The notes under the pieces are model-generated. The model was not told the origin of the DNA and did not search any database. It was given only the letters and a program-made list of their open reading frames with translations. From Candidatus Spyradenecus sp. (GTDB lineage Bacteria > Verrucomicrobiota > Verrucomicrobiia > Opitutales > UBA953): DNA of 64,000 nt. The position numbers and the translations under genes are program-made. The stretch is taken from the NCBI GenBank assembly GCA_045535075.1, contig JAZSKX010000014.1, positions 192,001 through 256,000 on the forward strand, given 5' to 3'. Positions 1 through 64,000 of this stretch are shown here, one piece after another; positions within the stretch are counted from its first letter, which is position 1; every line of letters begins with the position of its first letter.

Positions 1-2
1 GC

Positions 3-872
3 GGGAACGAGCACGGACGCGCCTTCCGCGATGTCGAACTCGAAAAACAGGTGCTCGAAGAAGCGCATCGCATCGGGCTCGGCGCGCAGTTCGGCGGGAA
101 ATACCTCGTGCACGACGTGCGCATCGTCCGCCTCCCGCGCCACGGCGCGAGCTGCCCGGTCGGCATGGGCGTTTCCTGCTCCGCAGACCGCAACATCAAG
201 TGCAAAATCAATAAAGACGGCATTTGGATTGAAAAACTCGACAACAATCCCGGCGAACTCATTCCGGAAGAACTCCGCGAAGCCGGCGAAGGCAACGCCG
301 TTAAAATTGACCTCAATCGCCCGATGCCGGAAATCCTCAAGGAACTTTCCAAATATCCGGTCGCGACACGCCTTTCGCTCAACGGCACGATTATCGTCGG
401 ACGCGATATCGCGCACGCAAAACTGAAAGAACGCCTCGACCGCGGCGAAGCGCTCCCGCAATACATCAAGGATCACCCGATTTACTACGCGGGACCGGCA
501 AAAACGCCGGAAGGAATGGCGTGCGGCTCGATGGGACCGACGACGGCGGGACGCATGGACTCTTACGTTGATTTGTTCCAAGCCAACGGCGGTTCGCTCA
601 TCATGCTTGCCAAGGGCAATCGCAGCCAGCAGGTAACGGATGCGTGTAAAAAACACGGCGGCTTCTACCTCGGCTCGATCGGCGGCCCGGCGGCAATTCT
701 TGCGCAGAACAACATCAAGTCGATTGAATGCGTCGAATACCCGGAACTCGGCATGGAAGCGATTTGGAAAATCGAAGTCGAAAACTTCCCGGCGTTCATT
801 TTGGTCGACGACAAGGGCAACGATTTCTTCAAACAAATCAAACCCGTTTGCCCGTTAGGACAAAAAGCTTAA
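3..872 (+). CDS. Class I fumarate hydratase, C-terminal part (5' end outside window)
   Basis: Frame open from position 3 ([10 protein letters not shown]...); [35 protein letters not shown] motifs. Confidence 0.95.
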
Positions 873-896
873 AGTTTAAGGCTTAGAGCTTAAAGG

Positions 897-932
897 GCGT
901 TCCCGTGGCAAGAGTCGCGGGAACGCTTTTTT
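897..932 (+). terminator. Intrinsic terminator built from an inverted pair of the CGGGAAC motif
   Basis: GCGTTCCCGTG-loop-CGCGGGAACGC followed by T6. Confidence 0.85.
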
Positions 933-1277
933 ATTCTTCGTTCAATGTCGCGTATCGCTTGAGTTCACATTTTGACGAATCCGAGTTTTCGGGAAGATCG
1001 GATAAAAATCGGAAAGAGCGATGTGTTCCCTCAGGTAAATTTTCGCCAGCGGTATTCTGGTGTACGAAGTAAAGGAATCACGGAAAAGGAGAACGGTATT
1101 GCATCATTCGAATGAATTGGAAGCGGACGTAAATTCGGGTCTTATTTTCGTTGATTCGAGAAAATTCCACTCGTTTTTAACAGGCTGTTCGGAGACTTTT
1201 GCCGCGGGAACGCCGACTCGCGGCGGCTACGGGCTTTTCTTTGGACGGGAATCTGTTAGAATCCGCCTTTTAAATTT

Positions 1278-2735
1278 ATGGACACCTTTATCATTACCGG
1301 CGCAAATGCCGAGCCGGCGCAAAGTATCGCGCGCCGCTTGTGCGAGATGGGCGCCCGCGTTTACGGCATTGCGGGAACATTTCCCGAAGCCGATTTCGCA
1401 TTTAACGAATTTTTCCCGATCGCATGCGACGTAACTTCGCCTTCGTCCGTCGCCGAAGCTGTAGAAGAAATACTTGCGCGCGAAAAGACGATTTCCGGAC
1501 TGATTTTCTCGACTCAATATTTTTCGAATGAAGCGTTTGAAGCGATGCCGCTTGAGGAAATCACGCTGTCTGTCAACGCGCTTGTTACAACGCCGCTGGT
1601 GATTGCGCGGCTCGCGTTGCCGTCGCTGATTGCTTCCCGCGGGAGCGTGATTGCTGTTTCGCAAAATACGGTTACACCGCGCGGACACGTCTTAAATAAT
1701 ATTACAGACGCAGCGATGAAAGTTTTTACGGGAACGCTTTTCGGCGATTTGCGCGACACGGGAGTCAAGACCTGTCATATTTTTCTTCAAAACAATACGG
1801 GAACGCCCGATCCCGGGGCGGCATTTACGAATGCGCCGCAGAGCCGCATTCAGCCGGATATTGTCGCAGAAACGGTTGAAACGGTGTTGCGGTTGCGGGA
1901 AAATAATGCGCTGACGCAAATTGTTTTGCGCCCGCAGGCGACTCGGGAAACTCCGCATATTCCAGTTTCGTCGGAGCCGAGAATTCGCACCTTGCAGGTT
2001 GTGCGTTTGCCGGAATCTAAAAATTATCCGCCGGCGGAAGAGCCGATTCTTACGCCGAAATACCGCCGTCCGGAATACGCGCCGCCGCGCGGGCAAAAAG
2101 CATTGGAAGCGGCGGAAAACGCTGTTTCGGAAGCGGAGGAATTCGCAGATGATTATGTGGATCCGGAATTGCGTTATCTTGTTAAAGGAAGCGAAAAAGG
2201 CGAGGCTAAGCCGCTCGTTCCCGCAGAAGAAACTGTAAGTCCGCAAACAGAAAGCCGTCCGGAAACGGATGAGAGCGGCAATCCGCTTCGCCGCAAGCGC
2301 AAGCGCCGCCGCAAGAAAAAGAATCGCAACGGGGCAATGATTGTCCAGCCGCCGCAGTTGGGCGGGCAGACGGATGTCCCGAAAACACCGCAGATTCTGC
2401 GGGAAGAGCAGGTCAGAGAAATTCCGAAAGCTTCGCAGAAGGAAAATCGCACGGGAACGGCAGGCGTGCCTGAGGAAATACCGGTGGGCGAGCCTGTTGC
2501 CAAACGCGGGAACGTGCCTGTAAATTCGGGAAAAAACGAAAATCCGGTCGAGTCCGAACCTGCGACGCCGAAAGAGAAAAAACGCACGAAAACACCGACG
2601 GGAAAAAAGACGCCGGGGCGTTCCCGCGCGAAAAAAACAGACGTTTCGGAGCCGGCGAAACCTGTCGAAAAAGCGAAAAGAAAACCGCGAAAGCCGCGCG
2701 GGGAAAAGCAAGCGAAGACGGAAGACGTTTCCTAG
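1278..2735 (+). CDS. SDR-fold protein (degenerate) with long Pro/Glu/Lys/Arg-rich disordered C-terminal tail
   Basis: N-terminal FIITGAN, IACDVT, ELRDTGVK-like segments; no GxxxGxG or YxxxK; low-complexity basic tail. Confidence 0.7.
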   Translation: MDTFIITGANAEPAQSIARRLCEMGARVYGIAGTFPEADFAFNEFFPIACDVTSPSSVAEAVEEILAREKTISGLIFSTQYFSNEAFEAMPLEEITLSVNALVTTPLVIARLALPSLIASRGSVIAVSQNTVTPRGHVLNNITDAAMKVFTGTLFGDLRDTGVKTCHIFLQNNTGTPDPGAAFTNAPQSRIQPDIVAETVETVLRLRENNALTQIVLRPQATRETPHIPVSSEPRIRTLQVVRLPESKNYPPAEEPILTPKYRRPEYAPPRGQKALEAAENAVSEAEEFADDYVDPELRYLVKGSEKGEAKPLVPAEETVSPQTESRPETDESGNPLRRKRKRRRKKKNRNGAMIVQPPQLGGQTDVPKTPQILREEQVREIPKASQKENRTGTAGVPEEIPVGEPVAKRGNVPVNSGKNENPVESEPATPKEKKRTKTPTGKKTPGRSRAKKTDVSEPAKPVEKAKRKPRKPRGEKQAKTEDVS

Positions 2736-2810
2736 GAAATTTTCGGGAATCGTCGTTCGGGTTTCTGTTCCCGCTCGCAATCGCGGGGCGGCTTTGTTAG
2801 CTTTTTCCGC

Positions 2811-4442
2811 ATGTTATCCCGTAATCCATTTTCAGCGCAGACGCTCGGTGCATTCTCCCTGAGTTTGTTGTTTGCGTTAAGCCCGCTTTGTGCGGACGAG
2901 ATCAGGATTGATCCGGAGCTCAACGGCGAAAGTCAAATCGGTCGCGAATGGTTGGACGGCAAAGCGACGTTTAGCGAGCTTGAGCAAAAAATTCTTTCGG
3001 CGCTTCCCGCCGACAAAGCGAGAAACGCGAAGGAAGTCGAGGCGTTTCTGAAAGATCCGAAAAACCGCATGACACTTGCGCGTTGGTATTTCATGGACGT
3101 CGCGGGAACGGATGCGGTCGTCGCTCAAATCGATAAGCTTTCGGATCGCCGTATGTTTTTCCAATTTCTCTCCGATTTGGATTGGCTTGAAGGTTACCTT
3201 TACACGGGAAGACCGGAGCGGGCGGACAAGTTTTTGGAAATGTTTTTGACAATCGCCAGGCGCGAAAAAGAAATGCTGAAAGATCCGATGTTGCGCAAGA
3301 TCGCGATGGCGACAGCCGCCGAGTTTTCCCGCAACGGGTGGAGCTTGGATACGCCTTCCCGCGTCGTGAAACGCTACAGATTCTTTTCCGACAGTTGGAA
3401 AGAGGGGAAATTGAATGTGCTTTTCGACGATTTGGATTATTGGGATATGCGCGTCGTTTGCGGGTGGAAGGGAAATAATGATTTCGGCGACGAATATTCC
3501 ATGCGCTGGGCGCGGGACAACGTTAAGCTCACGGAAGAAGGCTATGCGAGCGGGTATGATATTCACCAGCTTGATTACCGCTTGTGGAATAAGGCGGGCG
3601 ACAGCGTTCATAATACCGATTATTACGCGCCGTTTCGCCCGCATTTTACGACGAAAAGAGGCGAAATCAACATGTCGGCGATGTCGCTTGAAGTCGGTGC
3701 GGTTTGCGGCGGGATTTCGCATTACGGCGTTGCGGGAGCGGTTTCCAACGGCATTCCCGCGATTACAATGGGCGAGCCGGCTCACTGCGCTTTTGCCGTG
3801 CGTGTGAACGGCGTGTGGCGCGATAATAATTCCGTTTCGTACAAGCGCGATTTGCATTGGACGCTTTTGGAGGGCAGGACGTGGGCGTTTCTTCACCTGA
3901 TTCAGGATGTTTTTTCCGATAAGAAAAGAACGCAGCAGTCTTTTCGTAAGGCGGCGCTCGCGCGCTTTTATGCCGACAAAAAACGTGCGGCGGCTCTTTC
4001 GCTCTACGGGCAGGCGCTTTCCACACAGCCGAAAAATTATTTGGTTTGGATCGACTACTGTAATTACCTCAAAGAGCAAAAAGCGCCCCAAAAGCATTGG
4101 GTCGTGGCGAACAATAAAATAATCAGCGCGTTTACCGAAAAATATCCGGATGTGACGGCAACCGCTTTGAAAAACTACGTCTATCCGAATCTTTTTAATT
4201 TCGTAAAAAAAGACGAAGACAGACTCAAAATCTATGCAGGCTTCATGGAGAAAATGAATGCCGTCGGTCCCGCGACTTGGGATATGGAAAGCTTTTGGGA
4301 TTTCCAGGCGGAGCAGCTTTCTGCCGAAGGGAAACGACAATTCAAGGAACTCGGGAAAAAGCTTTTCAAAGGGAAAGGCGAGTTTGAAAAGAATTTTAAC
4401 GATTGGGCAAACGGTAATTCCCGAAACAAAAAGGAAGACTAA
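2811..4442 (+). CDS. Secreted hypothetical protein, possibly transglutaminase-like (Cys/His) fold
   Basis: Signal peptide-like N-terminus; GAVCGGIS...GIPA...EPAHCAF segment. Confidence 0.55.
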   Translation: MLSRNPFSAQTLGAFSLSLLFALSPLCADEIRIDPELNGESQIGREWLDGKATFSELEQKILSALPADKARNAKEVEAFLKDPKNRMTLARWYFMDVAGTDAVVAQIDKLSDRRMFFQFLSDLDWLEGYLYTGRPERADKFLEMFLTIARREKEMLKDPMLRKIAMATAAEFSRNGWSLDTPSRVVKRYRFFSDSWKEGKLNVLFDDLDYWDMRVVCGWKGNNDFGDEYSMRWARDNVKLTEEGYASGYDIHQLDYRLWNKAGDSVHNTDYYAPFRPHFTTKRGEINMSAMSLEVGAVCGGISHYGVAGAVSNGIPAITMGEPAHCAFAVRVNGVWRDNNSVSYKRDLHWTLLEGRTWAFLHLIQDVFSDKKRTQQSFRKAALARFYADKKRAAALSLYGQALSTQPKNYLVWIDYCNYLKEQKAPQKHWVVANNKIISAFTEKYPDVTATALKNYVYPNLFNFVKKDEDRLKIYAGFMEKMNAVGPATWDMESFWDFQAEQLSAEGKRQFKELGKKLFKGKGEFEKNFNDWANGNSRNKKED

Positions 4443-9280: not shown

Positions 9281-9660
9281 GGGGATGTTCCGGATTCGAT
9301 TTCGGCAAATAGGTTGTGATTGCACGCGGAGGATGATACTTGGCCTCCTAAATCATGTATCGCCACGTTAAATGGCAAAAACAATACCATCGCGTTTGAA
9401 CGCAATGCGTTCGCGCTTGCTGCCTAATAGCTGCAGCACGGTTACGCTCGCCGACGCCTGCTAAGCGCGCGAGCCGTCAAAAAAGCAGGTAAAACTTCGA
9501 GCTTGTCAGCGTTCCCGCGAAGCCAAAAAAGGGAAAGCGGATAGGAATTCCCGGGCGTCGCCGCCCTCAGGAAAACCGAAATTCAAACGGACGGCTAAGC
9601 GTGTAGACGTTGCCTCCGAAAGGTCGAAAGACAGGGGTTCGACTCCCCTCATCTCCACCA
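9281..9660 (+). ncRNA. ssrA: tmRNA; tag (A)GKNNTIAFERNAFALAA* at 9374-9427
   Basis: 5' GGGGATGTTCCGGATTCGA; 3' GGGGTTCGACTCCCCTCATCTCCACCA; internal ORF ending ALAA-stop. Confidence 0.95.
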
Positions 9661-15542: not shown

Positions 15543-15580
15543 AAAAAAGCGTTCCCGTGATTTCGCGGGAACGCTTTTTT
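15543..15580. terminator. Bidirectional terminator between convergent genes, made of an inverted CGGGAAC pair
   Basis: A6-GCGTTCCCGTG-ATTT-CGCGGGAACGC-T6. Confidence 0.9.
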
Positions 15581-16588: not shown

Positions 16589-16786
16589 TTTACTTCCTAG
16601 TGGATTGTTAGAAAATGTACGCGACATCGTAGCAAAAAGAATCCTAAAAATGCAATAAGCTTGCAAAAAAAAATATTTTTCTTAAGCCCGCCCTAAAAGT
16701 TTGTTCGAATCGCTTGTGTTTCGTGCGGGAACGCTCGGAATGTGCGCTTGCGGCGGGAAGGTAAAATCTGTTTCATTAGCACTCAA

Positions 16787-20383: not shown

Positions 20384-22309
20384 ATGAGTAAAATTCTTGG
20401 AATCGACCTTGGTACCACCAATTCTTGCATGGCTGTCATGGAAGGCGGCGAACCCGTCGTCATCCCGAACAGCGAAGGCGCGCGCACGACGCCTTCGGTA
20501 GTCGCGTTTGCGAAAAACGGCGAACGCCTCGTCGGCCAGGCGGCAAAACGCCAAGCCGTTACGAACCCGAAAAACACGATCTTTTCGGCAAAACGCCTGA
20601 TCGGCCGTAAATTTGCGGAAGTTCAGGAAGAAATCAAATCGTTCCCGTTCACCGTCGTTGAAGGTAAAAACGGCGACGCCGCAATTCAGGCGGAAGTGAA
20701 CGGCAAAACGGAAACTTTCGCGCCGGAACAAATCTCCGCGATGGTGCTCGCAAAAATGAAAGCTGACGCCGAAGCCTATCTCGGCGAAAAAATCACGCAG
20801 GCGGTCATCACCGTTCCCGCGTATTTTAACGACGCTCAACGCCAAGCCACAAAGGACGCGGGAACGATCGCAGGGCTCGAAGTGCTCCGCATCATCAACG
20901 AACCGACCGCCGCTTCCCTCGCTTACGGTTTGGATAAAAAATCCGACGAAAAAATCGCGGTTTACGACCTCGGCGGCGGAACGTATGACGTTTCCATTCT
21001 CGAAATCGGCGACGGCGTTTTTGAAGTCAAAGCCACCAACGGCGACACTCAACTCGGCGGCGATAATTTCGACGAACGCATCATTTCCTGGCTCGTTGAC
21101 GGCTTCAAAGCCGAAAACGGAATCGACCTCCGCAACGACCCGATCGCGCTCCAACGCCTGAAAGAAGAAGCGGAAAAAGCCAAAATCGCGCTTTCGTCCA
21201 CCAATTCCACCGACATCAATCTGCCCTTCATCACGGCGGACGCAACCGGCCCGAAGCACTTGAACGTCCAGCTCACGCGCGCCAAGCTCGAACAGCTTTG
21301 CGACGACTTGCTCGAACGCACCCGCATTCCGTTTGAAAAATGCTTGCGCGACGCCGAGCTTTCCATGAGCGAAATTAACGAGCTCGTTCTCGTCGGCGGT
21401 ATGACGCGTATGCCGAAAGTCGTCGAAGTCGCCCGCAGCCTCGCGGGAAAAGAACCGCACAAGGGCGTGAACCCGGACGAAGTCGTCGCTATCGGCGCTT
21501 CCATTCAGGGCGGCGTGCTCAAGGGTGATGTTCGCGACGTGCTTCTGCTCGACGTTACGCCGCTCACGCTTTCCATCGAAACCGCCGGCGGTGTTTCCAC
21601 GCCGATGATTGAACGCAACTCGACGATTCCGACGAAAAAATCCCAGATTTTCTCGACCTACGCGGACAACCAGACCGCCGTCGACATCCGCGTTCTCCAA
21701 GGCGAACGCCCGATGGCGAAGGACAACAAGCAACTCGGGCTTTTCCGCCTCGACGGAATCAATCCCGCGCCGCGCGGCACGCCGCAAATCGAAGTTACCT
21801 TCGACATCGACGCGAACGGTATTTTGCACGTTTCCGCCATCGACAAAGGCACCGGCAAGAGCCAGGAAATCTCCATCACGGGATCGTCCGGCTTGAGCAA
21901 GGACGAAGTTGAAAAACTCCGCAAGGAAGCCGAACTTCACGCCGCGGAAGACAAAGTCCTTCGCGAAACCGCCGAAGCGCGCAACAAGCTCGACGCCTAC
22001 GTTTTCCAAATCGAAAAGCAAATCAAGGAAGCCGGAGACAAAGTTCCCGCCGAACAAAAAGCGGAAATGGACAAGCTCCTCGCCGACGCGAAGAAAGTGC
22101 TCGAAGACAAATCTTCCACGCTCGACGCGATTAACGAACAGGTTTCCAAAATCGAAAGCATCATGCAGGCGGCTCAGCAGTTCGCCCAGCAGCAACAGCA
22201 AGCCGGCGCGGGAACGCCTCCGCCGCCCCCGCAGAATGACGCTTCATCCGCCAAGAAAGGCGGCAACGGCGCCGTCGATGCCGACTTCGAAGTCGTCGAC
22301 GATAAGTAA
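20384..22309 (+). CDS. dnaK: Chaperone DnaK
   Basis: [39 protein letters not shown]. Confidence 0.99.
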
Positions 22310-22392: not shown

Positions 22393-22438
22393 AAAAAAAA
22401 AGCGTTCCCGTGATTAATTTCGCGGGAACGCTTTTTTT
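22393..22438. terminator. Bidirectional terminator made of an inverted CGGGAAC pair
   Basis: A9-GCGTTCCCGTG-loop-CGCGGGAACGC-T7 between convergent genes. Confidence 0.9.
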
Positions 22439-45218: not shown

Positions 45219-45229
45219 CGTCGTGTGTG

Positions 45230-45345
45230 CTTCGCGAGAGATTTTAGTTTTTCGCGAAGCACGCTGAGCTCGCCGAGTTTTTTGAAAGCGGGAACTGTTT
45301 TGTCTTTTTCTAAAAAGAACTTTGCGAATCCTTGAGTTTTCGGCG
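45230..45345. repeat. Dispersed copy of the ~104-bp unit
   Basis: GCGAGAGATTTTAGTTTTTCGCGAAGCACGCTGAGCTCGCCGAG...AAAAAGAACTTTGCG. Confidence 0.85.
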
Positions 45346-45365
45346 ATAAAGGTAGTTTTTTTAGG

Positions 45366-47042
<1,677 letters not shown>

Positions 47043-47061
47043 GTAAAACGGTTTGCCGATT

Positions 47062-47102
47062 CGTTCCCGCGCGGAATTCAAACTTGCTCCGTTGCGGGAA
47101 CG
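47062..47102 (+). terminator. Hairpin after ettA made of an inverted CGGGAAC pair (weak U-tract)
   Basis: CGTTCCCGC...GCGGGAACG. Confidence 0.55.
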
Positions 47103-47149
47103 GGTTATCATCATGAAGTTTTACGGCTTAATTTCTACACCCTAAATTT

Positions 47150-49336: not shown

Positions 49337-49353
49337 TTCGTTTTACCGAAAAC

Positions 49354-49394
49354 AAAAAGCGTTCCCGTGGTATTTGTCGCGGGAACGCTTTTTT
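49354..49394. terminator. Terminator made of an inverted CGGGAAC pair
   Basis: A5-GCGTTCCCGTG-loop-CGCGGGAACGC-T6. Confidence 0.9.
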
Positions 49395-49426
49395 GTTTTT
49401 GCGGGATTTATCTTAAGCTTAGAAAT

Positions 49427-49465
49427 AAAAAAGTTCCCGCAGGAAAAACTTGCGGGAACTTTTTT
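49427..49465. terminator. Second terminator made of an inverted CGGGAAC pair
   Basis: A6-GTTCCCGCA-loop-TGCGGGAAC-T6. Confidence 0.9.
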
Positions 49466-49484
49466 GAGCGGCTAGGAAATTCGC

Positions 49485-50969: not shown

Positions 50970-51103
50970 AATAATTACAGATTCTCTTTTTTAGAAAAAG
51001 GCTTGTCGAGCTTTAACGGTTTTTTAGGAAAATAACGCCTCGCGGGAGCGCCGGAGGTAATTTGTTCGCCATACGGGAACTTCCTTTGTTTAATAAACGC
51101 TCT

Positions 51104-51622
51104 ATGGAATCTCCGCTTATTCAAAATCCGAAATTGTTCCCGTCGCTTGAAGCGGCGGTGGCTCGCCGAAAAGAACTTGCCGAGTCCGGGAAAAAACTTG
51201 TTTTGACGAACGGCTGTTTCGACCTTCTTCATTGCGGACACGTGTATTATTTGCGTGCGGCAGCAAAACTCGGCGATGAACTTTGGATCGGGCTTAACGG
51301 TGCGGATAGCGTGCGCGCGCTCAAAGGTCCGACGCGTCCGGTGCAGGGCGATTTGGAGCGTGCATTTACGCTTGGGGCGCTTGAGTTCGTCTCGGGAGTT
51401 TTCTTTTTTCATACGCCGCGCTTGGATGCCGAAATTCGTGCTCTTCGTCCGGACGTTTACGCGAAGGCGGGAGATTATACGCTTGAAACCCTCAATCCGG
51501 ACGAACGGGCGGCGTTGCTTGAATGCGGCGCGGAAATTGAATTTCTTCCCTTTTTGCCGGGATTTTCCACGACGAGTTTAATCGGAAAAATTTCGCAGGC
51601 AGCCGCTGCGGGAACGCTCTAA
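51104..51622 (+). CDS. Heptose-1-phosphate adenylyltransferase-like cytidylyltransferase-family protein (RfaE domain II)
   Basis: TNGCFDLLHCGH, LKGPTRP, KAGDY, GFSTT. Confidence 0.88.
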   Translation: MESPLIQNPKLFPSLEAAVARRKELAESGKKLVLTNGCFDLLHCGHVYYLRAAAKLGDELWIGLNGADSVRALKGPTRPVQGDLERAFTLGALEFVSGVFFFHTPRLDAEIRALRPDVYAKAGDYTLETLNPDERAALLECGAEIEFLPFLPGFSTTSLIGKISQAAAAGTL

Positions 51623-51650
51623 CGAAGCTCGGAAAAACGAAACCCGGAAA

Positions 51651-53336: not shown

Positions 53337-53337
53337 A

Positions 53338-53370
53338 CAATCCCTTCCGCTGAGCGAAAGGGATTGTCGA
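53338..53370. terminator. Hairpin between convergent genes
   Basis: ACAATCCCTT...AAGGGATTGT. Confidence 0.65.
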
Positions 53371-53380
53371 CGTGGGAATT

Positions 53381-53827
53381 TTATGCCTCAGCTTCTCGCT
53401 TTGCGTAAACTTGCTTTTCAACGTCGATAAAGACGCGGGCAATAACTTCGTAAGCTTTTCGCCATGCTTCGATAATTTCGTCCGTAGCGGCGTCTCCCAA
53501 GACTTCTTTAATTGCAATCAGAAGATGTTTTCCGACAATCGGATAATGCTCTTCCTTTACCATGCAATCGCAGTGAACTTTGGCAATTTTCGCTACGGCG
53601 GGAGCGAGATTTTCAAGCTTGTCGATGTTTTGAGCTGCCGCGAGAACCGTCATCGCAAGTGCTTTCGGCTGTGCGCCCGAAGCTTGTTTTGCCATGTTAA
53701 ACATCGGTTTCACTTCCGGGTTTTGCTCAAACATATTTTTGTAAAATGTTTGAGTAATCGTCATCCCGTGGGCTTTTAGCGCGGGAACGGTGCTTTTCAC
53801 TAACTCGATAGTTTTGGCATCTAACAT
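53381..53827 (-). CDS. Single-domain bacterial globin (VHb/Cgb-like)
   Basis: [42 protein letters not shown]; no reductase domain. Confidence 0.93.
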
Positions 53828-53888
53828 ATTCTTACTTTCTTTTGTGGTTAATAGGAAAAAGATAGGCATATTCTGCGGGAATGAATAA

Positions 53889-53911
53889 AACATGCAAATA
53901 AAATACACATT
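53889..53911. promoter_or_regulatory. Possible NsrR/Rrf2-type operator upstream of globin
   Basis: AACATGCAAAT-A-AAATACACATT resembles the 11-1-11 AAGATGCATTT-N-AAATGCATCTT box. Confidence 0.45.
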
Positions 53912-53991
53912 AAAATGGACTTTTAATGATAAAACTCTTTCGTTGCCTTGAACGTTTTTTTTTGAAAGACTTCCACAACTTTATTTTCAAC

Positions 53992-54067
<76 letters not shown>

Positions 54068-54436
54068 ATTAAGAATCCTGCTTTAAACGTAGTGTTTAAG
54101 CGGAATTCTTAGCTTTATGCGGGTTGTATATGAGTGTGAGGCTTTTTATTGGGACACAAAAACAAAAATTATTTGGCGTTTGAGAAAAACGTTTATTATT
54201 TTCCGAATCGGGCGTGTTTGCGGGTTTTTCGTAAAATTACAGAAGGAAAGCCGCCATATCGTTTATTCCGAACTTGAGTTGACGGCGGGGGAAACTTATG
54301 AGTCGCAATTTGCGGTGCGCATACGTCACTGAAGCGAATTTATGCTCTACGGCTATGGCGCAGATATTAAACTAAGCAGGGACGTTGCCCAAAACGCGAG
54401 TTGCAGCTCCTTGGATCAAGTTGCAGAAATTTGCTG

Positions 54437-55024
54437 TTAGTTCGCCGGTACGGCAGAGAACATCATCATCTTGTTCCACGCGTCAATATCTTGAACAATA
54501 AAAAGCCCTAAGATACAAGATGCATCTTGGACGCAAATTTGCGTGTGTGTTTTCTCGAAAAATTTCCCGCCCGGATAAACGGGTTCTCCCTCAATAAACG
54601 GAGATTTGACCGCCGGAATTTTTCGATCTTCAAAAAGAGTATTTAAGACGGCACAGTCGAGGTGGCGTTTTAATTCGTCCTTGTCGTTTTTGCGTCCTCG
54701 TTGATTTTTAGGAAGTTTTTGTCCGGTGGAGTTGTAAATTGCTTCAAGCTTTTGATAGGCAAGACGGAGGAATTGTGCTCCGTCCGGAGAGGTTAAATCG
54801 AGACATAGATTCGGGTTAATGATTGCTCCGAGGACTGTCGGGTTTTCTTTCTTTTTGTCGACAGCCCATTTGCGAGCTCTCAGAGGATCGTCTTCCCAAA
54901 AATAAAACCCTTTCCCGAGCCACTCAAAATCGTTGGTGCTTTGCTTAAGGTCAAAAGAAAGCACGATGCTTTCAGCGTCTTTTCGGGAGCATCCGTGAAA
55001 ACCGTAAATCGGGTGAAGCGCCAC
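54437..55024 (-). CDS. Hypothetical protein with ADP-ribosyltransferase-like motif order
   Basis: GFHGC...WLGKGFYFWE...A..WA...HTQICV. Confidence 0.6.
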   Translation of the reverse strand: MALHPIYGFHGCSRKDAESIVLSFDLKQSTNDFEWLGKGFYFWEDDPLRARKWAVDKKKENPTVLGAIINPNLCLDLTSPDGAQFLRLAYQKLEAIYNSTGQKLPKNQRGRKNDKDELKRHLDCAVLNTLFEDRKIPAVKSPFIEGEPVYPGGKFFEKTHTQICVQDASCILGLFIVQDIDAWNKMMMFSAVPAN

Positions 55025-55030
55025 CGGAAA

Positions 55031-55204
55031 TCAGGAGGAGTGAATAACGCGTTTAATCCAAGCGAGCGCTTCTTCTTTGCTCATTTTCCGCACGTTGCGA
55101 ACGTCTTTTTCGAGTTGGTCGTAGGCTTCTTGAAAGAACGGGTTGTTCAACTTAACGCGGGGCGAGCGCTTCCGTGGCTGTTTTGTTGCAGATTGTTTCA
55201 CCAT
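55031..55204 (-). CDS. 57-aa basic hypothetical protein upstream of the ART-like gene
   Basis: AGGAG RBS before ATG 55204; ends 6 nt before next gene. Confidence 0.55.
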   Translation of the reverse strand: MVKQSATKQPRKRSPRVKLNNPFFQEAYDQLEKDVRNVRKMSKEEALAWIKRVIHSS

Positions 55205-55315
55205 GTTCTTTTTCTCCTTAGCCTGATCTTCGCACAGCGCTCCGCCTCGTGCAAGCACTAACCGAAACGAACCTTTTCTAACCACTTTGACGATTGTTTG
55301 AGGATTTTTACGAAG

Positions 55316-55350
55316 AAAAAGGCGTTCCCGTGATCTCGGGAACGCCTTTT
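55316..55350 (-). terminator. leuC terminator made of an inverted CGGGAAC pair
   Basis: A5-GGCGTTCCCG-TGATCT-CGGGAACGCC-T4. Confidence 0.85.
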
Positions 55351-55366
55351 GTATTTTTTCGGACAA

Positions 55367-56773
55367 TTACAGCCCGAAAACTTCGCGACAGTCGGCAACT
55401 TCGCCCTTCACGGCGGCGGCGGCAACCATCAGCGGCGACATCAGCAGCGTGCGCCCCGTCGGGGAGCCTTGGCGCCCTTTGAAATTGCGGTTCGACGCGC
55501 TCGCGCAAACCTGATCGCCTACAAGCTTGTCCGGATTCATCGCCAAGCACATCGAGCAACCCGCCATGCGCCATTCAAAGCCCGCATCGCGGAAAATCTG
55601 CGCGATGCCGAGTTTTTCGCACTGCGCCGCAACAATTTGAGAGCCGGGAACGGCAAGCGCTTTCACGCCCGGTGCCACTTTTTTCCCTGCCAAATATTTT
55701 GCCACCAGCTGAAAATCCGAAAGCCGCCCGTTCGTGCACGAACCGATAAACGCGACATCGACTTTCGTTCCCGCAACCGGAGCGCCCGGGGAAAAACGCG
55801 TGTAGCGATAAGCTTCTTCCGCCGTCGCGGCATCCGTCGCAGAAAGCTCTTCGGGACGCGGGAACGCCGCCGTCACGGGAACGCTCTGCGCGGGCGTAAT
55901 TCCCCAAGTTACCGTCGGCGCAATGTCTGCCGCGTCGACGTTGACGACATCGTCGTAAACGCAATCCGGATCGCTTGCAAAGGATTTCCAGCGTGCGACT
56001 GCGGCTTCCCACTCCGCATCTTTCGGGGCAAACTTGCGTCCTTTGAGATAGGCGAACGTCGTTTCGTCGGGATTGACGTAGCCGACACGCGCGCCGCCTT
56101 CAATCGCCATGTTGCAAACCGTCATGCGTTCGTCCATGGAGAAATTATCAAACACGCTCCCGCCGTATTCGTGCGCGTAGCCGATTCCGCCGTCCACACC
56201 GAGCAGGTTAATCAAATGCAAGGCAACGTCTTTGGCGGTAACGCCGGGTTTGAGCGCGCCGTTGACATTGATGCGGCGCACCTTCAGCGGCGAAAACGCG
56301 AGCGTCTGCGTCGCGAGTACATTGCGAACCTGCGACGTGCCGATGCCGAACGCGACCGCGCCGAACGCGCCGTGTGTCGCCGTGTGCGAGTCTCCGCAGG
56401 CAATTGTTTTCCCCGGTTGCGTGATGCCCTGTTCGGGACCGACGATGTGAACGATACCCTGGTGTCCGGTATGTGTATCGAAAAATTGAATACCGTTTTC
56501 CGCGCAGTTTTTGCGGAGTTCGGAAATCATGGATTGCGCAACGGTGTCGGAAAAAGGCTCGGCAACGCTCGTTGTCGGCACGATGTGGTCAACCGTCGCA
56601 AAGGTGCGTTCCGGGTGCATGACGGGCAGTTTCATGTCGCGCAACATTCCGAACGCCTGCGGCGAAGTTACTTCGTGAATGTAATGTGTGGCGATGAAAA
56701 GCTGTGTTTGCCCGTTCGGGAGCGTGGCGACGGTGTGCGCGTCCCAAACTTTTCGAAAAAGTGTTTTACCCAT
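55367..56773 (-). CDS. leuC: 3-isopropylmalate dehydratase large subunit
   Basis: [40 protein letters not shown]. Confidence 0.97.
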
Positions 56774-56914
56774 AATGCGGGAAAATCTAATTCGTGCGAC
56801 GCGTTCCCGCAAAGCGAAATTTATAAAGTCTACAATAAAACAAAAGTTGTTTTATCGTCTTTACTTTACTAGTTATTTTTATTTTCCTTTGCGCAAAAAA
56901 TAACTGCTCTCGAA

Positions 56915-59365
56915 ATGAAAAAATTACTCCTTTTTGTTGAGAATCTCGTAAAGAGAATTTTGAGAGTTCCCGCATTCTTTATATTTGCGGGAACGACGCA
57001 GGCGGAATTCGTTGATATAATTGCGTTGAATTCCGTTCCCGAGGACGAAACGGCGGCAAACGTCGGCATTATTTCTTTGAATAATCCGGACTTGGCTCCG
57101 CCCGAGGGATTTGAAAACGGCTTTCAAACCGCGAGGGAAAACGGGCGGCAAATCCGTTATCATATTATGGACGGCAATCCGAATGCGTGGAGCGCAGTCG
57201 TCGGCAACGGCATCGAATATTGGCAGGATAACAGCGGCGGCGCACTCGGCGTGGAGCTTTGCGCGGGTCCGCGTTCCCGCGGCATAAAACAGCGTTTTGC
57301 GATGGAGGCGAACAAAGATTTTTGCGGCGGCTATGCCTTGGTTTGGAATCATTACGGGCGCGTGCCGAAATCGGGAACGCTGGACTACAGCTACACGGTG
57401 ATGATTACGGCGGGCGACCCTTCGGCGGAAGGAGCGCAAACCATCGGAACGCCGCTCGTGATTGAGTCTGCGCGCGTTCCCGCGGGCGGCACGGCAAAGG
57501 AATGTTTCTTTTTCGGAATCGGGGAAACGGATCTGTCTGCGATTGAAAAAAACGGACTTTGGATCAGCATTACGCCAAACACGACGGGGACGTTTTCGGC
57601 GGTCGTCAGCAATCTCCGCATCGTAAAAATCTGCATGGCGGTCGATAAAAACCGCGACCGGAACGTTTCCTTCGGCGGCGACGATTTTACTTCCGCTTCC
57701 GAGCCCTATCGCTTTTGGATAAACAACGATTCCGATAAAAGCGGCATGAGCGAAGACGAGGTTTCCGCTATCGACCGAAGCGGCTCCGCCGAGCCGGACA
57801 GTAACAACGAAAAACCCGAAAGCATTCGCGATTTGGAAGATTTTTCCCGCTTGCAGATTCGTTTTTTCGGCGACGAAAATGCGATGGCTTGGATTTTTGA
57901 AAAACTAAAATCCGGTGATTTGTCTGCACAAATCAGAAGTTCCGGAAGTGCAAAAATTCGTGTCTGGCGACATTTAGATGATGCGGGAACGCTTTCTTAT
58001 GTAGATGGCGGACAGGCACAAGAAATTACCGGTCTCCAAACGATTCGCGTTGCGCACGGGACGACTCCGGAACTCTTGTTTCAAACAAAGATTTGGAAAG
58101 ATTGGTCTCCGGGAAATCCGAAATATGCCGTTCGGGGGATTTCGGTAGAGCATCCGCGACTCAATCTGCTCTTTGAAGGTGTTGATCAGGGGAAATCTCA
58201 ATTCTTTGCGGAATTTTCGTTTGCAGATCGGGATTATCAAGCGACGTCTTCCGTTTGGCTTGAACTTCTTGATGTCCGGAAAATGTTTGAGCAAGTGCAG
58301 TTAGTGGGAACAAATTCTTCCGGCAGTGAAAAATATTCCTGGAGCTCCGATCAATTCGGAAGTTTCCGAAAACCGTGGGATGAGGAAGCCGGTAAGCAAA
58401 TTGCTTTTATTCACGGGTGGAATATGGAAAAAGCGGGAACGCGTTCCTATGCAGAAACCGCGTTTAAGCGCCTTTGGTGGCAAAATTATAAAGGTCGCTT
58501 CTCTTCGGTGTACTGGCCGACGGAAACAGGAGGCACGACTTATTGTCCGAGTGAGTTTATTGCTTGGAAATGCGGAGAGGCTCTGAGTGATTATTTTGAT
58601 GTTCTGAAAAACAACGGAATGACGGTAAATGTTATGGCTCACAGCATGGGCAACATCGTTGTCGGAAGTGCGTTAAAGGAAGGTGCAACTATCGGTAATT
58701 ATGCACTACTAAATGCCGCAATTCCCATGGAATGTTATGATGAGGATGAGAATCTTAGACAGCCTCCGCAGACGAAAACTCTCACGTCTTCGGAATTAAT
58801 GGTGGTAAATTTGGGACCGACGTATCTGGCATGGGCGAAACCATCTGTTTCTGACGATCCGATACGGGAACTCGCTTCACGCGGATACCGTGGATACTTA
58901 AAAAACGTATCTGGTAGTCTTACCAATTTTTATTTACCAAAAGATTTTGCAACAGAGGAAGCATGGGAATTCAATAATTCAACGCAAAAACCTTGGGGTG
59001 ATATAGTTAATAAGATTTTTTCCGGTTCCTATGTCTACTACAGTTACGATACAAAAATAGGCATAAGTAAAAAAATGCGTATGCGAATCGTTGCAGGGGA
59101 GCTTATCGAAGAAACAGATTCTATTTTGGTTGAAGACGTGATAGATCCGGAAGAAGTGATGTCTTATGTTGATTCAAGCAAAACAAAAGTCGCAGGAACA
59201 GAAGGACGATCTTACGGAAAATTTTTGCAGAATATCAACATGGGTGAAATAGGGGAGATTGGAGTCAATTTCAACCGTGAACATAGTGCACAGTTTGTGC
59301 TACCTATTCAGCGTACGTGGAAATTTTGGAACACACTAAAAGAAATACTGGAAAAGAGCAAATAA
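56915..59365 (+). CDS. Probably exported multidomain protein with C-terminal alpha/beta-hydrolase (DUF900-like); putative effector
   Basis: FIHGWN, MAHSMGN nucleophile elbow, NAAI, late EHS; central VDKNRD..PYRFWINND..DLEDF segment. Confidence 0.7.
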   Translation: MKKLLLFVENLVKRILRVPAFFIFAGTTQAEFVDIIALNSVPEDETAANVGIISLNNPDLAPPEGFENGFQTARENGRQIRYHIMDGNPNAWSAVVGNGIEYWQDNSGGALGVELCAGPRSRGIKQRFAMEANKDFCGGYALVWNHYGRVPKSGTLDYSYTVMITAGDPSAEGAQTIGTPLVIESARVPAGGTAKECFFFGIGETDLSAIEKNGLWISITPNTTGTFSAVVSNLRIVKICMAVDKNRDRNVSFGGDDFTSASEPYRFWINNDSDKSGMSEDEVSAIDRSGSAEPDSNNEKPESIRDLEDFSRLQIRFFGDENAMAWIFEKLKSGDLSAQIRSSGSAKIRVWRHLDDAGTLSYVDGGQAQEITGLQTIRVAHGTTPELLFQTKIWKDWSPGNPKYAVRGISVEHPRLNLLFEGVDQGKSQFFAEFSFADRDYQATSSVWLELLDVRKMFEQVQLVGTNSSGSEKYSWSSDQFGSFRKPWDEEAGKQIAFIHGWNMEKAGTRSYAETAFKRLWWQNYKGRFSSVYWPTETGGTTYCPSEFIAWKCGEALSDYFDVLKNNGMTVNVMAHSMGNIVVGSALKEGATIGNYALLNAAIPMECYDEDENLRQPPQTKTLTSSELMVVNLGPTYLAWAKPSVSDDPIRELASRGYRGYLKNVSGSLTNFYLPKDFATEEAWEFNNSTQKPWGDIVNKIFSGSYVYYSYDTKIGISKKMRMRIVAGELIEETDSILVEDVIDPEEVMSYVDSSKTKVAGTEGRSYGKFLQNINMGEIGEIGVNFNREHSAQFVLPIQRTWKFWNTLKEILEKSK

Positions 59366-59366
59366 T

Positions 59367-60374
59367 ATGGAAAAGCAAAAGCGATATTGGAGGATGGTTA
59401 TATTTCTTCTAGCATTTTCGGGAATCCTGTTAGTGCTAGCAAAATTTAGCGACAAAGATTGTGAGATATCTGAATATGTTGAATTAAAAGAGGCGGATAC
59501 CACCTCTCTTCTAAGTAAAATTCTTGCCAACAAGATAGTTTTCCACGGGCAGGTTTTGGATTTGGAGGGCAATCCGGTTTCGAATGCCCAAATAACTTAT
59601 TCCGGTTTTACTGCCGCTCATTATGAGAACGCTTGGACGGGCGGCGGTCCGCCGGACAAAATTAAATATGCCGACGAAAACGGATGCTTTGAAATTCGGG
59701 AAACCGGAGGAAGTTTATTTGTTAATTGTACGCATCCGGAGTATTACGAAACTCGAGGTCATCCGGAAGAATCACAACGGAAATTTGGTTACGGACTCCA
59801 CGTTGGAGAGGATCCGGCACTTGAATCTAAAAAACCGGCGATTTTTCGCTTACGCAAGAAAGGCATCCGAGAACCTCTCTACTACTCATGTAGCAAGATT
59901 ATCGGAAAGGGGCAAAGTTGGATTCAGTTGCCGAAGGAAGGGATTGCAATAAATCTTGCAAACGGAAAGAAAGCCGAAACTGATACAAGCATCTATATTT
60001 CATTTCACCGAGATAAAAATTCGGAGCAATCTGAAGATTATGATTGGGGATACACACTACGTATTCCCGAAGGCGGGTTTATCGAAAAGGAAGGTAGGTT
60101 CAACTTTATTGCCCCGGAAAGCGGGTATCATTCGGAAGTTGGCATTAAGTGTAAAAAAGGCGATCGACTCTGGGGTTTTTGGAAGTCCTATCACTACTTT
60201 ATAAAGTTCCCTAATAAATTGTACGGTATTTTTGAAATTCGGGTATCAGACGGAGGTTGGATAATTTTTCAGGCACTTATCAATCCGAATCCGGCTTCCC
60301 GTAATTTGGAATACGAATACGAAAAACAAATTAACAAAAATCAGGGAGGAGATGGCTATCATTACCGCTTATGA
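59367..60374 (+). CDS. Membrane-anchored hypothetical protein (putative immunity paralog 1)
   Basis: N-terminal TM; IVFHGQVLDLEGNPV carboxypeptidase-regulatory-like start; 1 nt after hydrolase stop. Confidence 0.7.
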   Translation: MEKQKRYWRMVIFLLAFSGILLVLAKFSDKDCEISEYVELKEADTTSLLSKILANKIVFHGQVLDLEGNPVSNAQITYSGFTAAHYENAWTGGGPPDKIKYADENGCFEIRETGGSLFVNCTHPEYYETRGHPEESQRKFGYGLHVGEDPALESKKPAIFRLRKKGIREPLYYSCSKIIGKGQSWIQLPKEGIAINLANGKKAETDTSIYISFHRDKNSEQSEDYDWGYTLRIPEGGFIEKEGRFNFIAPESGYHSEVGIKCKKGDRLWGFWKSYHYFIKFPNKLYGIFEIRVSDGGWIIFQALINPNPASRNLEYEYEKQINKNQGGDGYHYRL

Positions 60375-61510: not shown

Positions 61511-61516
61511 TCTTGT

Positions 61517-62527
61517 ATGCTCAAAAAGATGCAAAGACTTCGAGTGTTTATTTTGCTTTTTTGTACGCTTTGGTGCGTTCCCGCGTTTGCGGCGGGGCCC
61601 GTTCCCGCCGAGGAGGTTTTTGATGCGAAAAGCGCGGCGATTCTCGGCGTGGTCGAAGGTTTGACGGAATATTTGCCCGTTTCTTCAACGGGGCATTTGA
61701 TTTTGGCGAATGCCGCACTGGAATTGGATTCGGATTCGGCGATTGCTGCGCGCGGCGGCGAAGGAATTGTGCGCGATGGCGAAGGCTCGGATTTCACGGT
61801 GAAAGAGGCGGCGGACGCGTATTCGATTATCATCCAGTTCGGCGCGATCATTGCCGTGCTTTTTGCGTATTGGAAACGCTGCACGGGAACGCTTGTCGGC
61901 GTGTTTCGGCGCGATCCCGCGAGTTGGCGGCTCTCGCGCAACCTGATTGTCGCGTTTGTGCCGGCTGCCGGGCTCGGGTTTATTTTTTCGGATAAAATCG
62001 AGGAATATTTGTTCAATCCGGTAACGGTGGCGGTGGCACTCATCGTCGGGGGCGTTCTGATGCTTGTCGTCGATAAGCGCCAGAAAAAACGTGCGGCACT
62101 CGGCGAAGACGCGGGAACGGAAAAGCTTGATTTGCAGGATTTGTCGGTGAAGCAATCGCTGACAATCGGGCTGATGCAGTGTATCGCGCTTTGGCCGGGA
62201 ATGAGCCGCTCGATGGCAACGATTGTCGGCGGCTACGTTGCGGGGCTTTCGCCGCGGCGAGCGACGGAATTTTCATTTTTGCTGGGCTTGATTACGCTTT
62301 CTGCGGCATCGGTTTATAAAACGCTGAAGTGCGCGCCGCAGATGTTGGAATCCTTCGGCGCGGAAGTTTCGGCGGTCGGCTTGGCGGTGGCTTTTGTTTC
62401 GGCGTTTGCCTCGGTGAAATGGATGGTGAACTGGATTTCCAAGCACGGGCTTTCGGCGTTTGCGTGGTATCGTTTTGGTTTGGCGGCGTTTGTCCTTGTT
62501 TGCTGCTTGTGTTTCGATACATTATGA
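61517..62527 (+). CDS. uppP: Undecaprenyl-diphosphate phosphatase
   Basis: GVVEGLTEYLPVSSTGHL, IQFGAI, PGMSRS, ATEFSFLL. Confidence 0.95.
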   Translation: MLKKMQRLRVFILLFCTLWCVPAFAAGPVPAEEVFDAKSAAILGVVEGLTEYLPVSSTGHLILANAALELDSDSAIAARGGEGIVRDGEGSDFTVKEAADAYSIIIQFGAIIAVLFAYWKRCTGTLVGVFRRDPASWRLSRNLIVAFVPAAGLGFIFSDKIEEYLFNPVTVAVALIVGGVLMLVVDKRQKKRAALGEDAGTEKLDLQDLSVKQSLTIGLMQCIALWPGMSRSMATIVGGYVAGLSPRRATEFSFLLGLITLSAASVYKTLKCAPQMLESFGAEVSAVGLAVAFVSAFASVKWMVNWISKHGLSAFAWYRFGLAAFVLVCCLCFDTL

Positions 62528-63669
62528 AATGGATTTTTTTCATTGCATTCCCGGGTGCGATTCTCGGTTTGAATCTTTTTCTTGCGTGGGCGGCATGGCG
62601 CCTTTTTTCTCCGCATAAAAAACTGCAAATTGCGGCGGCGGGAACGTCGGTCGCCGTGCTTGTGCTTTTTGCGCTTTCATTTCTCGGGTTTCTGATGAGG
62701 GCGCAGGACAATGTGTTTTTTGCGTTTGCGTGGGAATTTCTTGCGTTTGCGGTTGTGCCGATGATTTATCTCGCGATTTGGGCGCTTGCGGGAACGCTTA
62801 TTGTGAAAATTTTTCCGACGCTCTCCCGTTTTAAAATTCACTTCGCGGTTGCCGGCGTTTTGCTGGTTGCGGCGGTTTGTATGTACGGATTTTGGAAATT
62901 CGAAAATCCGCGTGTCGTGCATCTGATTTGGAATCCGGAAACGCGAGAGCTCACACAAATCTCGGGCAGGCCGAAATTGCACGCGAGAATGCGTATCGTC
63001 GCGACGGCGGATTGGCATCTCGGCACACGCATTTCGCGGGAACGCACCGAGAAATTCGTGCGTCTCGTCAATGCTCAAAATCCGGATTTGCTCCTCATTG
63101 CGGGGGATTTGATCGACGGGAGAATTGAGCCGGTGGAGGCGGAAAAACTCGACGAAATAATGCGTGAAATCCATGCTCCGCTCGGCGTGTTTGCGTCTTT
63201 CGGCAATCACGAATATTTCGGCGATATTCCGCGCCAAAAAGCATTTTTCAAGCGTGCAAACGTGCGGCTTCTTCAGGACGAAAGTACGCTTGTCGATGAC
63301 GGCGCGGGAACGCAAATTCGGCTTGTCGGCCGCGACGATGCGATAAATCGTTTTCGTTTGCCGTTAAAAAATCTTTTGGAGCGCAAGCCGGCGGGAATGC
63401 GTGAGAACACTCCGACGCTTGTGCTCGACCATCAGCCGAAGGGGGCTTCTGAAGCGGCAGGCGCGGGAACGGATTTTGTTTTTTCCGGGCATACGCACGC
63501 CGGTCAACTTTGGCCGGGAACCTGGCTTGTTTCGCTTTTTAATCCTCATGTCCACGGAATTTGGCGGGAACGGGAAACGCTCGGATACGTTACCTCCGGG
63601 ATCGGTCTTTGGCATATTCCGTATCGCATCGGTTCGCAGTCCGAACTCGCTGTCATTTACGTTGAGTAA
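62524..63669 (+). CDS. Membrane-anchored calcineurin-like metallophosphoesterase
   Basis: DWHLG, GDLID, GNHE, DHQP, SGHTHAGQ; 4 N-terminal TMs. Confidence 0.92.
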   Translation: MKWIFFIAFPGAILGLNLFLAWAAWRLFSPHKKLQIAAAGTSVAVLVLFALSFLGFLMRAQDNVFFAFAWEFLAFAVVPMIYLAIWALAGTLIVKIFPTLSRFKIHFAVAGVLLVAAVCMYGFWKFENPRVVHLIWNPETRELTQISGRPKLHARMRIVATADWHLGTRISRERTEKFVRLVNAQNPDLLLIAGDLIDGRIEPVEAEKLDEIMREIHAPLGVFASFGNHEYFGDIPRQKAFFKRANVRLLQDESTLVDDGAGTQIRLVGRDDAINRFRLPLKNLLERKPAGMRENTPTLVLDHQPKGASEAAGAGTDFVFSGHTHAGQLWPGTWLVSLFNPHVHGIWRERETLGYVTSGIGLWHIPYRIGSQSELAVIYVE

Positions 63670-63741
63670 TACAAAGCGATTCTGTAGAAATAAAAAATTG
63701 ATCCTACGCTCAAAAACTCCAATCACTCCAACTTATTTCTC

Positions 63742-64000
63742 ATGAAATTAAAAACTACTTTGATGTGCGCGGCAGTTTTCGCCGTATTCGGATACGCGGA
63801 AGCTTTTTCGGATACGCGCGTTCCTGCGATTGCCGGAGACGACGATCATGCTCCCGTCTGGGAAACCAAATCGGAGCGCGATGCGCGCATGAAATGGTGG
63901 CGCGATGCGAAATTCGGCATGTTTATTCACTACGGCTTGTATTCCGGCTTGGCAGGAGAGTGGCGCGGCATGCCCGGCGGAACCGAATGGATCCAAAAAA
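63742..64000 (+). CDS. Alpha-L-fucosidase (GH29), N-terminal part, runs off window
   Basis: Hand-translated: signal peptide then RMKWWRDAKFGMFIHYGLYS...EWI. Confidence 0.88.
   Translation, partial: MKLKTTLMCAAVFAVFGYAEAFSDTRVPAIAGDDDHAPVWETKSERDARMKWWRDAKFGMFIHYGLYSGLAGEWRGMPGGTEWIQK

Follow-up and report, generated by a model that had tools for sequence, protein, structure and literature searches.

A short asymmetric word saturates the genomes of one Verrucomicrobiota genus and may be an independently evolved DNA uptake sequence

Results

A crowded word in a 64-kb window and its genome

The DNA analysed here, hereafter the window, is a stretch of 64,000 nucleotides from Candidatus Spyradenecus sp. 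(GenBank assembly GCA_045535075.1, contig JAZSKX010000014.1, positions 192,001 to 256,000) in which a short asymmetric word, CGGGAAC or its complement GTTCCCG, recurs throughout, in housekeeping genes such as dnaK and ffh, in the gene for transfer-messenger RNA (tmRNA) and between genes. The window holds 196 matches to this 7-mer, 119 on the plus strand and 77 on the minus strand, against a mean of 12.47 (standard deviation 3.69, maximum 24) in 100 dinucleotide-preserving shuffles, none of which reached 196; 159 of the matches extend to the 8-mer CGGGAACG, and the 10-mer GCGGGAACGC occurs 54 times. The original prediction that drew attention to the word, as a candidate DNA uptake sequence, gave a hand count of about 48 copies for the first 15.6 kb, where we count 50 sites. 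Its description of the word as non-palindromic and present on both strands and inside genes in several frames holds up, with all six frames in use and encoding the recurrent peptides that it listed, and so do the sites that it placed in housekeeping genes (five in dnaK and several in ffh, 16742-18145) and inside the tmRNA gene, where the copy reads GCGTTCCCGC. The features of the window to which the text refers are the following, with coordinates counted from its first letter.

899..924, unstranded: pair GTTCCCG-N12-CGGGAAC followed by a T-run, predicted intrinsic terminator hairpin
9509..9518, minus strand: full 10-mer within the tmRNA gene (9281-9660)
15551..15572, unstranded: pair with a spacer of 8, A-run and T-run, predicted bidirectional terminator between convergent genes
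20813..20819, minus strand: motif in dnaK (20384-22309) over an invariant Val-Pro-Ala, codons GTT CCC GCG
22404..22429, unstranded: pair with a spacer of 12, A-run and T-run, shortly past the dnaK stop codon
29715..36656, unstranded: motif-poor stretch with 4 sites in its 6942 bp and a GC content of 44.7% (genome, 52%)
49361..49386, unstranded: pair, top-scoring terminator-like hairpin (18 pairs) in a scan of 40001-60000
49433..49459, unstranded: pair with a spacer of 13, A-run and T-run
55324..55343, unstranded: pair with a spacer of 6, second-best terminator-like hairpin (14 pairs)
56966..56994, unstranded: pair with a spacer of 15, within an open reading frame (ORF) and without a T-run, a genic pair and not a terminator

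The source genome, which we call G000, comprises 1,949,087 bases in 18 contigs (52% GC, 99.45% complete), the window being G000:C1:192001-256000. Counted on both strands, the 7-mer occurs there 6528 times, the 8-mer 5159 times and the 10-mer 1614 times; the 8-mer stands 75-fold above compositional expectation, at 2.65 per kb, and occupies 2.1% of the DNA, and CGGGAA is the commonest 6-mer of the genome (10,920 copies, 10.7-fold). Alignment of the flanks of 6527 of the 6528 7-mer sites, one at a contig end being omitted, yielded the consensus R-CGGGAAC-G-c, with G in 62% and A in 24% of sites at position -1, G in 79% at +7, C in 46% at +8 and a weak preference for C or T at -2 and -3. These 6527 flanks hold no information beyond two to three bases on either side, and the word is a bare oligomer, not a piece of a longer repeat. 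The claim that it is usually extended to GCGGGAACGC fits the preferences at -1 and +7 and overstates the one at +8.

The genome tolerates few departures from this word. Single-base changes in the core of the 10-mer lower its count from 1614 to mostly tens, the largest being 192, and changes at its end positions leave up to 592 and 649 copies. Taken together, the 24 variants of the 8-mer with one mismatch show a 4-fold enrichment in G000; changes at positions 3, 4, 6, 7 and 8 are 3- to 7-fold enriched and those at 1, 2 and 5 about 1-fold, a pattern that fits a balance between mutation and restoration acting on positions of unequal importance. In size and copy number the word thus has the properties of the class formed by DNA uptake sequences (DUS) and uptake signal sequences (USS): it is short and non-palindromic, it occurs in thousands of copies, and its abundance drops sharply with a single mismatch.

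A signal carried by the DNA itself

Coding context was assessed with a set of 1403 gene calls of our own, made with an ORF and codon-usage heuristic from ORFs of at least 80 codons and covering 85.7% of the DNA; "intergenic" under this set takes in short genes. By these calls, 4218 of the 5159 8-mers, roughly 82%, lie inside genes at 2.5 per kb, and the other 941 lie outside genes or at their edges at 3.4 per kb. Within the 1403 genes the 8-mer occupies the three sense frames 1451, 700 and 384 times and the three antisense frames 1150, 273 and 260 times.

Codon-level nulls do not reproduce this abundance. When synonymous codons were shuffled within each gene, preserving both the protein and the codon usage of the gene, 880 7-mers (standard deviation 25) were expected against 5414 observed, 459 8-mers against 4224 and 97 10-mers against 1277, an excess of 6.1- to 13.2-fold. 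Shuffling the order of codons left 364, 154 and 13 copies of the 7-, 8- and 10-mer (15- to 99-fold excess), and across the synonymous, codon-order and genome-codon-usage nulls together the enrichment ranged from 6- to 99-fold. Loss of the signal under a codon-preserving null had been named in advance as grounds for abandoning the uptake reading, and the excess instead persists at 6- to 13-fold.

Comparison with other genomes locates the signal in the nucleotides as well. Over the invariant Val-Pro-Ala of dnaK (20813..20819), five of six outgroups use other synonymous codons and the sixth, L009, has the core by chance; the other sites in dnaK fall on residues that vary. In about 211 kb of alignment between G000 and three congeners, 42% of the genic differences that fall in G000 motif sites change an amino acid, against 37% in the background. 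Since differences in motif sites alter residues at least as often as background differences do, the force that maintains the word works at the level of DNA and reaches beyond silent positions.

One genus, one word and sites held in place

By a DnaK search the source genome falls in Verrucomicrobiota, its nearest named match ("uncultured Opitutaceae") being 78% identical and no record of the genus itself being returned. The 10-mer is present in all 19 genomes of the genus at 138 to 3301 copies, where a control with the reversed word gives 8 to 35. In 42 genomes of four sister genera of the same family it is at background (0 to 64 copies), in 396 other Verrucomicrobiota genomes sampled it reaches at most 96 copies, like the reversed-word control, and in eight other families of the order it is likewise at background. 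Scans for k-mers in 28-100 kb from each of four sister-genus genomes found no comparable word. One candidate for a sister-genus dialect, CGGGTACG, which is the top 8-mer in the first 100 kb of G021 (L117-L121) and is 13-fold enriched together with related words, was rejected because its flanks are 3-periodic, the mark of a protein repeat and not of a DNA-level word. The word is confined to the genus and common to it, in one form throughout.

Its density varies widely within the genus, from 0.6 8-mers per kb in G001 and G002, which have about 330 10-mer copies each, through the 2.65 of G000 to 4.6 in G003. Fifteen genomes are of high density and four (G001, G002, G049 and G065) of low density. 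We compared site positions between G000 and three congeners in alignments of about 76-79% nucleotide identity, from which overlapping high-scoring segment pairs were removed and in which windows containing gaps were tallied apart from the rest; the background is the share of identical windows among all aligned 7-mer windows, 22-25%. The relatives' sites are intact in G000 in 52 of 65 cases for G001 (80%), 55 of 79 for G002 (70%) and 120 of 214 for G003 (56%), so that they keep their position 2-3 times above background. In the opposite direction, 120 of 181 G000 sites (66%) are intact in G003, against 52 of 230 (23%) in G001 and 55 of 287 (19%) in G002. This asymmetry of retention indicates that sites are held in place in the dense genomes and not in the sparse ones.

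The sparse genomes appear to have lost sites that they once had. A larger share of G001 and of G002 than of G003 aligns with G000, with identity also higher, and one pilin of a cassette described below is 87-90% identical to its G000 counterpart in these two genomes and 52% identical in G003. The excess of single-mismatch relics per kb in G001 and G002 is about equal to that in G000, whereas perfect sites are 4.4 times fewer, and the ratio of perfect to one-mismatch sites is 0.2 in G001 and G002 against 0.8-0.9 in dense genomes. From these comparisons we infer that low density is derived, the maintaining force having probably relaxed in the lineage of G001, G002 and G049. G065, whose pilin groups with those of the dense genomes G008 and G009, may represent a second relaxation.

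Prophages and islands are poor in the word

Along G000 the 7-mer is spaced near-exponentially (mean 295 bp, median 208 bp, coefficient of variation 1.09), with 10 gaps longer than 3 kb where 0.25 are expected. The two largest motif-poor regions, at G000:C16:183-220 kb and C8:20-35 kb, have 7-11 sites per 10 kb against an average of about 33, and both are Mu-like prophages, recognised by Gam, a MuB-like AAA/TniB protein, Mu portal, terminase and gp27. Their density of the word is 3-4 times below that of the chromosome and still above the chance level of about 2 per 10 kb, and since their GC content is near that of the host, the deficit is not one of composition. The other gaps are mostly islands of low GC content (0.39-0.46), nearly free of sites, and several of them carry restriction-modification genes. 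Within the window, the motif-poor stretch at 29715-36656 is probably an acquired island; it encodes two radical-SAM/4Fe-4S proteins, an 811-aa protein with Chlam_PMP (Chlamydia-PMP) repeats and a LamG-like protein.

The restriction-modification genes in or beside low-GC, motif-free islands of G000 lie at four loci (C12:44633-48943, C12:73190-77438, C9:61187-67272 and C10:5206-6189) and comprise one C5 methylase and three HsdM-like N6 methylases. One of the Mu-like prophages (G000:C16:183000-221000 or C8:19000-36000) encodes a 487-aa protein with an ADPrib_exo_Tox ADP-ribosyltransferase domain and a 912-aa protein with YadA head repeats.

Inverted pairs form predicted terminators

Close pairs of the word in G000 strongly favour one arrangement. 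At distances under 20 bp there are 164 pairs of the form GTTCCCG...CGGGAAC against 26 in the opposite arrangement, with a peak at 19 bp, and for spacers of 0 to 18 nt (GTTCCCG-N0-18-CGGGAAC) the counts are 207 and 47. Intergenic DNA holds 158 of the 207, and 144 of these 158 have a flanking run of at least four T after the pair or an A-run before it, both runs being present in 73. Pairs with both runs are predicted to act as bidirectional intrinsic terminators of the form AAAAA-GC-GTTCCCG-loop-CGGGAAC-GC-TTTTT. An inverted pair follows the stop codon within 120 nt in 174 of the 1403 genes. The window contains seven inverted pairs, listed above, and the two best hairpins of an independent consensus terminator scan of 40001-60000 (18 and 14 pairs) are both motif pairs. 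Inverted pairs of DUS and USS are described as serving in terminators in excerpts of a recent preprint (Helsem et al., bioRxiv 10.1101/2025.10.24.684340).

A separate repeat of the window is an intergenic tandem array at 43663-44120, with 4.4 copies of a 104-bp unit at 92% matches, each unit ending with a small GC hairpin (CTCGCGCTCTCTGCGAG) and then a T-run.

Weak polarity

In G000 the 8-mer lies 2517 times on the plus strand and 2623 times on the minus strand. With the leading strand taken from the sign of the local GC skew, and 185 sites at |GC skew| <0.02 dropped, 2731 of 4974 8-mers (54.9%) lie on the G-rich, leading strand and 2243 on the other; intergenic sites divide 483 to 429 (53%), and 59% of genic sites favour the sense strand. 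The G-rich composition and the sense-strand preference explain part of the leading-strand excess. The strong leading-strand polarity that the original prediction had named as evidence against uptake is not present.

Competence and pilus genes

G000 encodes a 570-aa ComEC with the "Competence" channel domain, a DprA with HHH and winged-helix domains and a 984-aa secretin. A cluster at C5:26-32 kb contains two PilB/GspE ATPases, a PilT-like ATPase and PilC/GspF, and there are seven prepilin-type genes, four of which form a cassette at C1:259.1-262.4 kb, just past the window. RecJ, RecR, RecD2, RecC and a RecB-like PDDEXK nuclease represent recombination. Across the genus, all 19 genomes have an intact ComEC and DprA, and 18 have a secretin of about 990 aa, which is missing only in G005 (92% complete); prepilin genes number 7 to 11, the low-density genomes having 11. 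Of the competence machinery on which the original prediction made its reading depend, ComEC, DprA, the secretin, pilus-type ATPases and prepilins are found in G000; ComEA was not found, and no ComP-like receptor was identified.

The four consecutive prepilin genes of the cassette (G000:C1:259100-262400) are unusually large (345, 246, 249 and 228 aa) and weakly match "Verru_Chthon cassette" proteins C and D, PilV and GspG; RuvX, RecJ and RecR lie near them. A second, shorter secretin (about 780-880 aa) with four adjoining extra prepilin genes occurs in G001, G002, G049, G065, G033, G004 and G012; it is absent from G000 and 11 other congeners and does not track motif density.

Discussion

RCGGGAACG(C) is a DNA-level self-mark of this Verrucomicrobiota genus, and its abundance, anatomy, distribution, conservation and phylogenetic limits are direct observations. 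For its function, the reading that we favour, at about even odds, is that of an independently evolved DNA uptake sequence. Its reader, we infer, would be uptake machinery: a putative receptor, belonging to a type IV pilus-like machine and placed at the surface or in the periplasm, would bind the word on double-stranded DNA, fragments from the organism's own genus would be preferentially taken up, and the DNA would pass through ComEC, be loaded by DprA and be recombined. Such biased uptake and recombination would together constitute a molecular drive, spreading new copies and restoring decayed ones where protein function tolerates them, and terminators would be built from inverted pairs of the word. 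The independent uptake-sequence system put forward in the original prediction is partly supported: it gains from the tests of the null, of polarity and of lineage specificity and from the part of the machinery that is present, and is weaker on ComEA, dialects and the receptor.

Several observations weigh against an uptake sequence. ComEA was not found in the 99.45%-complete G000: TIGR00426 scored nothing there above its cut-off, and the one protein that matches HHH_3 strongly is Tex (787 aa), a weak match being a phage integrase. At E<=0.001 the ComEC of G000 shows neither a Lactamase_B nor an OB domain. It is common for bacteria that are not known to transform to have ComEC, DprA, secretins and pilins, and control genomes such as E. 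coli also match in our searches. Loss of competence genes does not account for low density, as the four sparse genomes keep ComEC, DprA, the secretin and all prepilins, and the one cassette pilin profiled across the family, the GspG-like member, is not genus-specific, having homologues in 61 of 61 family genomes. Dialects were sought by k-mer analysis of 108 kb of G001 and 113 kb of G002, which yielded no variant, the word being unchanged there and less dense. With 2.6-4.6 copies per kb it is, to our knowledge, denser than any known DUS or USS. Our literature search found no report of natural transformation or of uptake sequences in Verrucomicrobia, and a search for the word itself returned primers and unrelated matches, with no description of it. 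The machinery is permissive evidence only and does not separate dense from sparse genomes.

An alternative source of maintenance is selection for binding, the word being the site of an abundant, genus-specific factor unrelated to uptake and concerned with the nucleoid, with segregation or with self/non-self defence. Such a factor would fit the DNA-level conservation, the genus specificity and the prophage depletion, it would need no ComEA, and it would be compatible with the fall in density in some lineages despite their kept competence genes. We nevertheless think it rather unlikely, given that spacing is near-exponential, with no regular tiling, that binding offers no reason for inverted pairs placed as predicted terminators and that no candidate protein was identified. 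None of the nucleoid or defence proteins known to us requires exact 8-10-mers by the thousand within genes in all frames.

We judge it unlikely, too, that the word is a counterpart of HIP1, that is, a hyper-abundant oligomer kept by selection or by a conversion bias linked to a methylase or to mismatch repair. The 4-fold enrichment of single-mismatch variants is what a balance of conversion and decay predicts, and the word resembles HIP1 (GCGATCGC) of cyanobacteria, as portrayed in excerpts of the literature on it (PMC5861425, PMC4390886), in being an 8-mer at about one per kb or more that is over-represented and conserved in position. In the same excerpts, however, HIP1 is a palindrome linked to orphan methylases, whereas the Verrucomicrobiota word is asymmetric and has no conserved methylase or Vsr beside it. 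Vsr occurs in 1 of 19 genomes of the genus and a C5 methylase in 10 of 19, being absent from eight high-density genomes, and this patchy presence excludes a conversion drive by C5 methylase and Vsr as the genus-wide cause. Of the G000 methylases, those of the C5 class are located in a low-GC island and in a prophage, the three HsdM-like N6 genes adjoin motif-poor islands, and a beta-class N4/N6 methylase was not found.

Still another possibility, which we hold to be very unlikely, is that RecBCD reads the word as a Chi-like signal, for a recombination hotspot or for nuclease attenuation, that marks self DNA during double-strand-break repair. Chi acts in one orientation and is about 75% co-oriented with replication in E. 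coli, and known Chi sites are far below the 75-fold excess and the 2.6 per kb seen here, values that fit this reading poorly. Like Chi and the polar motifs KOPS (FtsK-orienting polar sequences) and AIMS (architecture-imparting sequences; excerpts of PMC5993296), the word is short, asymmetric, over-represented and read on DNA; it slightly favours the leading strand, and RecC and a RecB-like PDDEXK nuclease are present. Those words, in contrast, are strongly leading-strand-skewed, whereas this one lies on the leading strand in 54.9% of all cases and in 53% of intergenic ones; it is also more abundant by one to two orders of magnitude, and it makes predicted terminator pairs, which Chi does not form. 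Its weak co-orientation rules out a KOPS or AIMS polar motif.

Finally, it is scarcely credible that the word arises from codon usage or from repeated peptides, or that it is a small mobile element such as a repetitive extragenic palindrome (REP) or a miniature inverted-repeat transposable element (MITE). Its frames are unevenly used, and some protein repeats are suggested by a small number of close direct pairs spaced at multiples of 3. A coding artefact is nevertheless ruled out by survival of all three codon nulls and by the higher density between genes, and a REP or MITE element by a bare word of about 10 bp, with no information outside it, that has most of its copies within gene calls, unlike such elements.

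Returning to the uptake sequence, the fullest form of that reading is one that we put forward tentatively, at slightly less than even confidence: the word may belong to a third, independently evolved uptake-sequence system, the first outside Proteobacteria and the densest yet (up to 4.6 per kb), which would work with pilus, ComEC and DprA and without ComEA and would have relaxed at least once, and perhaps twice, within the genus. An unrelated system of this kind in another phylum, the third in all, would mean that the strategy is convergent, and it would predict natural transformation in largely uncultured, small-genome, gut-type Verrucomicrobiota, in which the word, added to donor DNA, might make the organisms genetically tractable. 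The spread of density within the genus (138 to 3301 10-mer copies) permits a comparative search for the reader, and relaxation within the genus, if it occurred, would be a natural experiment for finding the receptor. For annotation, the word separates core from acquired DNA and flags terminators in these genomes. How often sequence-specific DNA uptake evolves, and what reads such a word, are the broader questions on which this case bears.

Comparison with known uptake sequences

The closest known parallels are the uptake words termed DUES. In the excerpted text of Helsem et al. (2025; bioRxiv 10.1101/2025.10.24.684340) these have for decades been known only from Neisseriaceae and Pasteurellaceae, two proteobacterial families, and are 9-10 nt in length, found at hundreds to thousands of copies per genome and up to about 2% of the chromosome, enriched in core DNA, absent from recently acquired genes and read by minor pilins; the DUS of Neisseriaceae are treated by Frye et al. 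(2013; PMC3630211, likewise in excerpt). The Verrucomicrobiota word differs from DUS and USS in belonging to another phylum, in its unrelated letters, in being one genus-wide word, with no dialects seen, and in its greater density (2.6 per kb in G000 and 4.6 per kb in G003). On the side of the machinery, no ComEA was found, ComEC is represented by its channel domain only and no ComP- or ComN-like receptor was recognised. Every computable feature of DUES is found except dialects, a recognisable receptor and ComEA. Like DUS and USS, this is a 9-10-nt, non-palindromic word in thousands of copies that makes up about 2% of the chromosome and lies on both strands, in genes in several frames as well as between them. 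To the hallmarks listed in the original prediction, our analysis adds four that are shared with DUS and USS: inverted pairs, here predicted as terminators; core enrichment with depletion in prophages and islands; conservation of position; and strict specificity to one lineage.

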